Assembly (NCBI GenBank): GCA_944350345.1
Contig: CALVOP010000004.1
Location: 12,190-76,189, forward strand
From: an uncultured Bacilli bacterium
Lineage (GTDB): Bacteria; Bacillota_I; Bacilli_A; RF39; UBA660
Length of the DNA: 64,000 nucleotides
Direction: 5' to 3'
Shown here: piece after piece, positions 56,001 to 59,000 of the stretch
Layout of the letters: the number at the start of each line of letters is the position of its first letter
How positions within the stretch are numbered: position 1 is the stretch's first letter
Made by a program: the position numbers

Positions 56001-59000
56001 CTCTGAGCCACTTTACCACTTATAAATATTCCTATTAATACTATTCCAATCAATACAAGTATGACTAATATTAGTGTTGATAACCACTTTAAAATTTTGT
56101 TAATAGCTTGTAAAAATTTATTTCGTTTTTTTGACATGTTATTCACCTTCATAACTATATTTATTTCCTAAAACCACTATTTTTCCAGAAAAACTTTTTC
56201 CTTGATTATCATTTTGATCACTATTTGTCTCTTTAAATTTAACTTTTACTGTACATGTTTGAATATCACCCGAATTAATTATTCCATCACCAATTTCAGA
56301 AGATGTAGTAGGCATATTTAATTCATTTGTTATATTTACAACTTTATTGTACTTACTTTCTGGAACTTCTTTTCCATCTTTAGTAGCTACACACTCTATA
56401 GTATACACTAAATCATTATTTTTTATTTCGTTTTTTTCAATTTCCCAGTTTATTGAATAACTACCAGCTATGTTTTCTCCATCAGTAGTATTTCTAATCT
56501 CAAATATCATCTCGTCTTCCCAACCTGGTAATGCATCTTCTTTTACTATATCCTTTTTAGAATTGTAAACAAGAAGTAAATCGGCAGTTTCCAATTTAAC
56601 TTCTCCAGCATCTTCATTTCCACGTATTGTGGAAGTAAAAAATGAAAATGTTGTTCCAATAGTCATTATTACAAATGTACATAAAGACAAAGCAATTAAA
56701 ATGTATATTTTTTTATTTTTATTATTCTCTTTTTCCATGTCTATTCTCCTACTTTATATATTATCATTATTTTTACTTGACTTCAATATTTTTTAGGAAA
56801 TTGACATTATAAAAACGAAAAAAGTAGGATAACCTACTTTATATCATGTTTTTGTAACCAACTATGTGTTGTTTTATATTAGTTTCCAGTTGGCAAAGTT
56901 GTTGTTCCACCAGGATTTTCGTCATTGTAATAAACTGTTCCGCCTGTAATTTTACATGTTACAACTGCAGATGCAGATTTGCCTTGTTGTGTATTTTGAT
57001 TTTCGCCAGTTTCTTTGAATCTTATTGCAATTTTATATGTATCTGACCCATTGCTAGCTGTGATGTTTCCATTTACAACTTGTGTATTTGTTCCGATTGT
57101 AGTCCAACTTCCAGCTGAACTATCATCGGCACCATCAGCACCCACACGGAATTCCAAATCTGAAACATCACCTGTCTTATTGATTTCACATGTGTATGGA
57201 ACTGATACGCTTCCTGTTACAGTACCTGAAATTGTAAAACTTGCATCAGCGCTTTCCCATCCAGGTAATACATTTGTACCTGAAACTTGTGTTCCATTTA
57301 ATTGTAATGCACTGATAGATGCTGTAGTAATATTAGCGCTTGCTCCATCTCCACTGATTGTTGTTGAGAACCATGCAAATGTTGCCCCTACTATTGCTAC
57401 TAATAGTGTTGCAATTCCTATTACTGACAAGAATATTGTTTGTCCTTTGTTGTTTTCCATAGTTTGTTTACCTCCTTATCATATTAATCATATCAATTTT
57501 TAATGACTTTATCAAGTATAAAAAAAGTAGGCAAGCCTACTTAAGTTTTTGTAATCCAACTATGTGTTGTTTTATATTAATTTGGTCGAGTTGTTGTTCC
57601 ACCAGGATTAGCATTGTTATAGTAAACAGTTCCGCCAGTAATTTCACATGTTACTGTTGCTGTAGCAGATTTACCTTGTTGTGCATTTTGATCTTCACCA
57701 GTTTCTTTAAATCTAACAGCAATTTGGTATGTGTCTGAAGGATTACTAGCTGTGATATTTCCAGTTACAACTTCTGTATCTGTTCCGATTGCAGTCCAAG
57801 AACCACCAGTACTATCATCAGCACCATCAGCACTAACACGGAATTCTAAGTCAGTAACTTCGCCTTCTTTATTAATTTTACAACTATATGGAACTGATAC
57901 ATCACCACTTACAGTACCAGCTACAGTGAAATTTGCATCAGCACTTTCCCATCCTGGTAGTACATTTTCCCCTTCAACTTGAGTTCCGTTAAGAGTTAAT
58001 GCACTGATAGATGCAGTAGTAATATTAGCACTTGCTCCATCTCCATCGATTGTTGTTGAGAACCATGCAAATGTTGCTCCTACTATTGCTACTAATAATG
58101 TTGCAATTCCTATTACTGATAAGAATATTGTTTGTCCTTTGTTGTTATCCATAGTTCGTTTACCTCCTTTACAATAACAATAATATCAATTCTTACTAAT
58201 TTTATCAAGTCTTTTTTAATACTTTTTGTAAAAATTTTTACAAAGAAAAAAGTAGGAAATCCTACTTATTACTCTTTCATAACTTAACTATGTGTACTAG
58301 CTTATTCTGCTGTAGGCTCATCAGTTACACCTGTTGGATTACTTGAGTTATAGTAAACAGTTCCACCAGCTAATGCACAAGTTACAGTTGCAGTAGCAGT
58401 TTTATTTTGTTGTGTATTTTGGTCTGCACCTGTTTCTTTGAATCTTAACGCAATGTTATATACATCTTCAGAGTTACTTGCAGTTATAGATCCAGTAACT
58501 ATTTGAGTACTTGTACCAACAGTTTTCCATGCTCCACCAGTACTAGCTCCAGCATCAGCAGCACCAACACGGTATTCTAAATCAGTTAATGTATTATTTG
58601 ATGTAATTGTACATGTATAAGGAACTTCTACATCACCAGTTACAGTACCACTTATAGTAAATGTTGCATCGTTACTTTCCCAACCAGGTAATACGTTTGT
58701 ACCTGTAATAGTTGTTCCTTCTAAACTTAGTGCACTAACTTGAGCAGTAGTGATATTAGCACTTGCTCCATCTCCATCGATTGTTGTTGAGAACCATGCA
58801 AATGTTGCTCCTACTATTGCTACTAATAATGTTGCAATTCCTATTACTGATAAGAATATTGTTTGTCCTTTGTTGTTATCCATAGTTTGTTTACCTCCTT
58901 TACAATAACAATAATATCAATTCTTATTAATTTTATCAAGTCTTTTTTTATATTTTTTTGTAAAAAAAGTTAAGCATTTTTAATTGCTTAACTTATTCCT

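Follow-up and report, generated by a model that had tools for sequence, protein, structure and literature searches.

Why should a gut bacterium carry, side by side on one strand, three similar genes for an exported protein, each of them furnished with what look like its own transcription and translation signals? The question is raised by a 64,000-nucleotide (nt) stretch of contig CALVOP010000004.1 (assembly GCA_944350345.1, positions 12,190 to 76,189; hereafter the window, with coordinates counted from its first letter) from an uncultured, low-GC (28%) gut Bacilli lineage, in which the genes g1 (58302-58883), g2 (57577-58152) and g3 (56879-57460) lie in tandem on the minus strand. An original prediction made from the DNA had described them as near-identical fibre-subunit genes, whose arrangement was that expected for antigenic or functional variation by gene conversion among cassettes, or for dosage tuning of alternative major subunits. 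The analysis presented here suggests, with a probability that we put at roughly 70%, that the three are paralogs encoding major subunits of an extracellular fibre that is TasA-like and depends on SipW, and that their 5' ends have been kept alike by gene conversion.

All three open reading frames (ORFs) are intact at the coordinates first proposed and encode proteins of 193, 191 and 193 amino acids (aa) respectively, with orthologs of g1 being present in the related loci L001, L003, L082 and L084. The earlier description of the genes as near-identical, with an overall identity of 80-85%, holds for g2 and g3 (82% in protein and 83% in DNA) but was overstated for the set as a whole, since g1 shares only 70-71% of its aa with either other copy (71% aa and 76% nt identity with g2; 70.5% aa and 72% nt with g3). 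Similarly, the first 47 codons, which had been reported as identical in all copies, are so in g1 and g2 at the protein level only, the DNA of these two being identical over the first 131 nt, whereas g3 departs from them at two residues (2 and 36) and at 7 nt. The concentration of divergence in the later parts of the genes was borne out, with most of the differences among the copies falling after codon 44.

The affinities of the encoded proteins emerge from their relatives. PF12389 (Peptidase_M73, camelysin/TasA), with a gathering cut-off of 22.5 bits, is the only Pfam family that recurs among these, being detected in 11 of 40 relatives at E <= 0.01. Upon rescanning, the relatives P0121-P0199 score 25-33 bits on PF12389, which places them above the cut-off, and their matches to the profile of the subunit family have E values between about 1e-53 and 1e-66. 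A BLASTP comparison of g2 with one member of this set, P0123, gave 43% identity (E = 7e-34). Because such clear relatives pass the PF12389 cut-off, g1, g2 and g3 belong, by transitive homology at the sequence level, to a divergent clade of the TasA/camelysin family. The Pfam match and a profile comparison with TasA (hhalign) both align a C-terminal FK-ETG-x-DQN-x-QQGK motif. The database search recovered 484 homologs (484-559 profile matches), almost none of which has a name that says anything of its function; the few names given at the source read "hypothetical protein" or "unknown", and the assemblies from which they come are labelled as gut "Tenericutes" or Clostridium sp. CAG:628.

A second line of evidence is provided by the genomic context. 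The segment of the window from 55.5 to 60.7 kb is a run of minus-strand genes arranged in the order of a 568-aa membrane-anchored Ca-repeat protein (58988-60694, predicted as an ORF and translated), the three major subunits, a minor paralog termed p4 (56139-56738) and a SipW-type (archaeal/endoplasmic reticulum-type) signal peptidase I (55520-56152), and this locus is conserved. The peptidase matches TIGR02228 with 102 bits against a cut-off of 51.85, scores 97.5 bits with the SipW-Bacillus model, which is below the equivalog cut-off of 190 for that model, and has transmembrane segments at both of its ends. Its gene overlaps that of p4 by 14 nt, and the two are predicted to be translationally coupled. 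The p4 protein, of 199 aa, is 28% identical to the major subunits and scores 168 bits against the subunit-family profile; it shares with the major subunits the N-terminal motif GxTF(A/S)-(W/F)F(S/T)(T/S)TI, and its position directly after them is kept in most related loci. In the L004-L018 loci, from CAG:628-like genomes, p4 is itself followed by a fifth paralog. The same gene order is observed on two independent contigs, L081 (100% identical, covering g2-g3-p4) and L001 (g1-g2-g3-p4-sipW), and hence the array is not an assembly artefact; look-ups with the exact proteins g1 and P0014, for their part, retrieved no contig. Together, membership of a divergent TasA/camelysin clade and the adjoining SipW-type peptidase support the designation of these genes as encoding fibre subunits, as had originally been predicted.

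The signal peptide of the subunits ends in ...VGATFA/WFSTTI, a segment that is invariant in 24 alleles and resembles the corresponding cleavage regions of TasA and CalY, GGTWA/AFND and GGTFA/FFSD. The leader could also be read in quite a different manner, namely as a class III signal peptide (MDNNKG / QTIFLSVIGIATLLV...) of type IV pilin-like subunits that would be cut by a prepilin peptidase, given that it is short and charged, ends in K-G and precedes about 22 hydrophobic residues. However, the residue at +5 is Leu rather than the Glu of type IV-type leaders, the hydrophobic stretch ends in GATFA-WF as at the SipW sites of TasA and CalY, and no prepilin peptidase, assembly ATPase or platform protein was found among the larger window ORFs, on which the Pfam scan was run; these likewise yielded no type IV pilus genes and no sortase. 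As the homology to PF12389 and the adjoining SipW-type peptidase also speak against it, a type IV pilin origin is hardly credible, and it was dropped along with an Ena-like spore-appendage reading, neither of them having a supporting family match or machinery.

The 568-aa protein at the head of the run displays a single N-terminal transmembrane segment (residues 33-59), about 30 acidic repeats of the DxDGDG type and a C-terminal domain of the subunit family (25 bits against the profile). Its repeats are reflected in the DNA as a 36-nt tandem period, and the protein has an isoelectric point (pI) of 4.05. In most related loci, the subunit genes come after one to three genes of this type. These features suggest that the protein may be the membrane anchor or base of the fibre, and the repeats hint at a role for calcium.

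Structure prediction with AlphaFold2 yielded mean predicted local distance difference test (pLDDT) values of 71.8 for the full-length subunit and 78.6 for the mature protein from which the signal peptide had been removed. Both models contain a confident all-beta core in the form of a beta-sandwich (pLDDT about 90), with the signal peptide and approximately the first 20 mature residues being disordered. In Foldseek searches of the PDB, the TasA fibre (8aur_A) ranked fourth for the first model (E = 2.3e-3, probability 0.96, template modelling (TM) score 0.32) and the archaeal bundling pilin 7ueg was also recovered, while the donor-strand-complemented pilins FimG and FimA led the matches of the second. 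The predicted fold is compatible with a TasA-like fibre, without being decisive. The mature subunits are very acidic (pI about 4.05), Thr, Ser, Asn and Gly together contribute 43-48% of their residues, and each contains 4-5 N-x-S/T sequons. Their C-terminal tail (...NPGGTTTxP...) varies between alleles by small indels, and the sequon-rich composition and variable tail may represent glycosylation or a spacer region. All three proteins have cysteines at residues 91 and 169, which are conserved almost without exception within the close clade (>= 45% identity) and are missing from PF12389-positive relatives further removed. The two residues fall in two predicted strands and may form an intramolecular disulfide.

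These observations are consistent with a mechanism in which the pre-protein would be exported and cut by the adjoining SipW-type peptidase after ...GATFA29, as suggested by the cleavage motifs of TasA and CalY. The new N-terminus, WFSTTI... (residues 30-40), would then act as a donor strand that completes the beta-sandwich of a neighbouring subunit, so that the subunits chain into a fibre; this step is deduced from the membership of the family and from the disordered N-terminus in the models. In TasA itself, maturation takes place at A28, residues 28-38 form the donor strand, and the monomer is self-complemented by residues 48-61 (PMC9674648). If the proteins studied here behave likewise, their residues 41-49 would constitute a linker, and their first modelled strand (48-64) a self-complementing strand. 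More speculatively, the 568-aa Ca-repeat protein and p4 might supply the base and accessory subunits. The most likely product of the locus is therefore a SipW-processed fibre assembled by donor-strand exchange, the last step being the one drawn from related proteins. Because the signal peptide and putative donor strand are common to all copies, the three major subunits can probably co-assemble or replace one another while showing different surfaces.

An alternative that has to be weighed at this point is that g1, g2 and g3 encode beta-sandwich proteins that are secreted or associated with the wall and remain unpolymerised, such as adhesins, binding modules or spore/envelope proteins, and that they were amplified for dosage. 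The structural matches are indeed generic beta-sandwiches that include carbohydrate-binding modules, the neighbourhood of the array contains polysaccharide genes and genes resembling those of cell-wall hydrolases, a high dosage would fit with strong promoters and several copies, and polymerisation of these proteins is itself a deduction. Nevertheless, the sequence links lead to the TasA family, whose characterised members polymerise (PMC9674648, PMC11580942), the WFSTTI segment at the N-terminus does not vary and is left disordered in the monomer models, and an anchor-like protein, a minor paralog and a dedicated signal peptidase make up an architecture that fits fibre loci. The divergence of 18-30% between the copies also exceeds what pure dosage would need. 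Accordingly, we regard non-polymerising proteins as an unlikely explanation and favour fibre subunits.

A consensus scan for promoter-like and hairpin/T-run sites found TTGATA-N17-TATTAT, with a TG-extended -10 box, upstream of g1 (58911-58939, minus strand) and g2 (58180-58208), as had been claimed for all three, but the g3 site (57487-57515), which also has a TG-extended -10 box, reads TATGAT in place of TATTAT. Likewise, the 5' regions previously called almost identical are so in g1 and g2, with two mismatches from -65 to -1, while g3 has only the promoter core in common with them. The AAGGAGG sequence was confirmed 6-7 nt before the ATG of each gene, and each gene is followed by its own hairpin and T-run, namely AAGTAGG-N4-CCTACTT plus T6 after g1 (58267-58250; z = -3.05), the weakest of the three after g2 (57542-57525; core -7.4 kcal/mol, z = -1.1), and a third after g3 (56840-56821; z = -3.2). 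The gene of the 568-aa protein ends at a further terminator-like hairpin (58967-58994, minus strand) with a 10-bp stem and T7 (minimum free energy -12.4 kcal/mol, z = -4.3). Altogether, 6 terminator-like sites were counted in the region, where shuffled sequences would lead one to expect 1.3; a search with Rfam detected no RNA family in 50000-64000. The position of the g1 promoter-like site relative to the ATG is as in related species: in loci L004-L011, from species that are only 45-54% identical, a promoter-like site ends 26 nt before the ATG of every major-subunit copy, and the minor paralogs of these loci are without such a site at -26. The proposal that every gene has its own promoter and terminator, supported here from sequence signals, is strengthened by this fixed spacing. 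Each of the three window copies, with a promoter-like site, ribosome-binding site, ATG and terminator, hence looks expressible, and each would be transcribed from its own strong sigma-A-type promoter, with transcription predicted to stop mostly at its own short hairpin.

What, then, maintains the likeness of the 5' ends? The identity of g1 and g2 extends from -65 to +130, with only the two upstream bases mentioned above differing. The synonymous divergence (dS) in the first 44 codons is 0 between g1 and g2 of the window and 0.03 between those of L082, as compared with 0.72-0.98 in the gene bodies, and the probability of 0 changes at 30 synonymous sites is about 8e-9. Over the first 135 nt, a single site separates g2 of the window from g1, against 6-9 sites that separate it from its own orthologs; in the gene body, the orthologs are the closer ones, at 8-12% difference, as compared with 30% for g1. 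Thus, the 5' segments group by genome and the gene bodies by ortholog. Consistent with this, linker variants, TTISGTGTTANI and TKITGTGATA for example, are found among the 24 alleles attached to g1-type as well as to g2-type bodies. Residues 34-45 change fast between strains, yet g1 and g2 of any one genome have the same version. For the first 44 codons of these two genes, the ratio of nonsynonymous to synonymous divergence (dN/dS) between orthologs is about 1-2 when the L082/L084 lineages are compared and < 0.5 when L001, the closest locus, is. The gene bodies have dN/dS of 0.2-0.43, which indicates purifying selection, and they contain occasional tracts from another copy, with g2 of the window bearing a g1-type GGTGAT patch at about codons 83-84, and g2 of L082 (L82_g2) a g3-type block of roughly 100-150 nt.

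The size of the array is also variable. Three major-subunit copies are present in the window and in L001, two in L005-L008 and L011, and a single one in L004, L009 and L012, while the largest array seen is that of L018 (3606-8645), from a rabbit-gut "Lapin" metagenome-assembled genome (MAG), in which seven tandem major-type copies are followed by two minor paralogs. L082 and L083, which come from two independent metagenome samples, have two intact copies and a g3 from which the stretch between the -10 box and codon 69 has been lost, so that there remains a 5'-truncated, promoterless remnant (L082 3268-3715, L083 1456-1824) beside the g2 with the g3-type internal block. No copy number can be drawn from L084, where a scaffold N gap lies exactly in the repeated 5' region, and the assembly of L002/L003 breaks inside the array. 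Uniform divergence across the genes and an invariant copy number had been named as findings that would argue against recombination; since divergence is non-uniform, with a homogenised 5' block and mosaic bodies, and copy number varies, active recombination between the copies is supported.

Such recombination might have served programmed antigenic or phase variation, in which tandem cassettes swap segments and thereby alter the surface of one expressed subunit, as in pilE/pilS. The mosaic blocks in g2 of L082 and of the window, the one lineage with a promoterless, 5'-truncated g3 beside a g2 with g3-type sequence, the range of 1 to 7 major-subunit copies, and the alternation of paralog differences along predicted strands, as expected of exposed faces, could all be seen in this light. 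A silent-cassette system of this kind combines one expression locus and promoterless partial donors with mosaic segments moved between copies. Segments of the latter sort were found (the g1/g2 5' tract, the L82_g2 block and the g2 patch of the window), but each of the three window copies has its complete set of expression signals, from promoter and ribosome-binding site to start codon and terminator, and the promoterless truncated g3 is confined to the L082/L083 lineage. Moreover, the gene bodies keep clean orthology between strains under a dN/dS of 0.2-0.4, by its dominant signal, conversion makes the conserved 5' end uniform instead of diversifying the body, variable residues are equally common in loops and strands (44% each), and no recombinase or special recombination sequence was seen near the array. 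Antigenic variation in the pilE/pilS sense is therefore very unlikely, although the gene conversion on which that proposal was founded is upheld, and the other half of the earlier interpretation, alternative or co-assembling major subunits, is the better one. A related conception, also improbable in our estimate, is that the locus is a recombination-driven surface-variation module, in which conversion provides every copy with an identical export/donor-strand "adaptor" and thereby with access to the fibre, the bodies, including those of truncated, promoterless copies such as g3 of L082, are shuffled, and the array size of 1-7 constitutes the repertoire. Were this true, the strain-specific but genome-uniform linker of residues 34-45 would mark a co-evolving assembly interface.

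On the whole, the sequence comparisons argue for concerted evolution of co-expressed or alternative subunit paralogs, rather than silent-cassette antigenic variation, with recombination acting mainly to homogenise the predicted signal-peptide/donor-strand end. Ectopic gene conversion between the tandem copies would maintain the common 5' end and would also yield the occasional mosaic patches, deletions and copy-number changes. The locus would in this case offer a clean natural example of region-restricted concerted evolution, wherein the export/donor-strand end is homogenised while the surface-forming body diverges, and such homogenisation bears on how multi-subunit donor-strand fibres stay compatible.

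Several observations weigh against a SipW-dependent TasA-like fibre whose subunits are homogenised by conversion. With respect to the family, none of the three proteins reaches the PF12389 gathering score alone (20.9 bits for g2, 14.8 for g3 and no match for g1, with p4 at 14.6 bits also falling below it); the comparison of the family profile with one TasA sequence gave a non-significant hhalign E of 0.15 and aligned only the C-terminal motif; and a search of PDB chain sequences with g2 and a 40-sequence profile retrieved no TasA and nothing relevant. The Foldseek matches are weak and generic beta-sandwiches with TM scores of 0.3-0.4, and TasA falls outside the top 50 for the second model, which is the better one. 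As regards processing, the NCBIfam model for the SipW-cognate signal peptide gave no match (E <= 0.1), and in the next-closest clade, L004-L018, sipW does not lie within 8 kb of the subunit genes. The hairpins after the three genes are short, with stems of 7-8 bp, a core of about -7.4 kcal/mol and z of -1.1 to -3.2, and so read-through transcripts are possible. Finally, a condensed-run (Sawyer-type) test of g1 and g2 within the window gave a modest P = 0.014, because all three genes are nearly identical in the 5' region, and the argument for conversion leans on the comparison across genomes.

Certain features of the wider neighbourhood deserve mention. The fibre locus is flanked by wall-hydrolase-like genes at 60763-62118 and 53234-55426, both on the minus strand and both syntenic in L082 and L084. 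One of them encodes a Big_2 protein with weak similarity to NlpC/P60 and CHAP, and the other a protein with SH3 repeats, a glucosaminidase-like region, a cadherin-like domain and a dockerin domain; both could open the wall locally for passage of the fibre. Further away, a large cell-envelope polysaccharide cluster (25597-42841) comprises several GT2/GT4 glycosyltransferases, a UDP-GlcNAc 2-epimerase, an ABC-2 exporter, an O-antigen-ligase-like protein and an LCP-PASTA protein, and is followed by a two-component system and HtrA. An array resembling clustered regularly interspaced short palindromic repeats (CRISPR) occupies 62181-63397, with about 18 copies of a 36-nt repeat (consensus TGTATTAGTATAGCAAAAATTCTTAGGGTACCAAAAC, plus strand) and spacers of about 30 nt. 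The periods of 132 and 198 given by Tandem Repeats Finder and the recurrence of ORF translations point to a spacer pair having been duplicated at around 62170-62480, and no cas family match was obtained among the window ORFs scanned.

The recognition of this clade has consequences for the annotation of gut genomes, as several hundred "hypothetical" proteins (484-559 profile matches) of MAGs from uncultured gut Bacilli/"Tenericutes", including Clostridium sp. CAG:628, can now be read as TasA-like matrix or fibre subunits. Given that these are TasA-like and accompanied by a dedicated SipW-type peptidase, the lineages concerned probably build protein fibres like those of Bacillus biofilms. In terms of gene-family dynamics, the array is reminiscent of tandem archaellin, flagellin and pilin genes, which likewise combine a conserved N-terminal export/assembly segment and divergent exposed bodies with concerted evolution and changes in copy number. 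However, those proteins belong to unrelated families with a different assembly route, and the likeness is restricted to the dynamics.

Closer parallels are found among the TasA-like systems themselves. The GxTFA-(F/W)F motif of the presumed cleavage region is similar to that of TasA and CalY of Bacillus cereus. The B. cereus locus also has paralogous fibre subunits side by side with a SipW-type peptidase, and one of them is monocistronic, calY being transcribed from its own promoter beside sipW-tasA (PMC4292775); its TasA and CalY form heterofilaments (PMC13082335). The locus described here differs in having three major subunits and one minor subunit, with a separate promoter and terminator for each major one, in its shorter proteins (about 162 aa when mature) that fall below the PF12389 cut-off, in its host, an uncultured gut lineage, and in the lack of a CapP or TapA homolog, the transmembrane-anchored Ca-repeat protein ending in the family domain being present instead. 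The tapA-sipW-tasA operon of B. subtilis, whose TasA forms a donor-strand-exchange fibre (PDB: 8AUR), resembles it in the dedicated SipW peptidase, the beta-sandwich core, which is a predicted one in our case, and a C-terminal FK...QN..QG motif, and the first ~11 mature residues are hydrophobic/aromatic in both (AFNDI... in TasA, WFSTTI... here) (PMC9674648). Nevertheless, B. subtilis has a single operon with a single major subunit, and the similarity is marginal (hhalign E = 0.15; Foldseek TM about 0.3).

Several TasA/BsaA paralogs per operon are common, and the sipW-bsaA-bsaB-bsaC locus of Clostridium perfringens unites remote TasA homologs, SipW and several paralogs in one locus, with donor-strand exchange having been proposed there (PMC11580942). 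Unlike BsaA, the proteins studied here display no evident Asn-Glu-Lys isopeptide triad upon inspection of their sequences, and no Lys is conserved in the subunit body: g1 has T and S where g2 has K92 and K95, and none is common to the three proteins in the first half of the body. A further difference is that a von Willebrand factor A protein is absent here and that type IV pilus genes were not found among the window ORFs scanned. Finally, loci with an anchor, a minor subunit and a signal peptidase I occur across the TasA superfamily, including the AbpX-like calcium-responsive clade (10.64898/2026.01.04.697558), which shares with our subunits a very acidic character (pI about 4.05 here) and an aromatic residue at mature position 2. 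By its description, that clade is set apart from them by an acidic residue at mature position 4, where Thr is found here, and by a peptidase with ten transmembrane segments, as against the SipW-like segments at the two ends here. Taken together, these comparisons mark the locus as a divergent, yet ordinary, representative of the TasA-like fibre systems already known, and not as a new kind of system.

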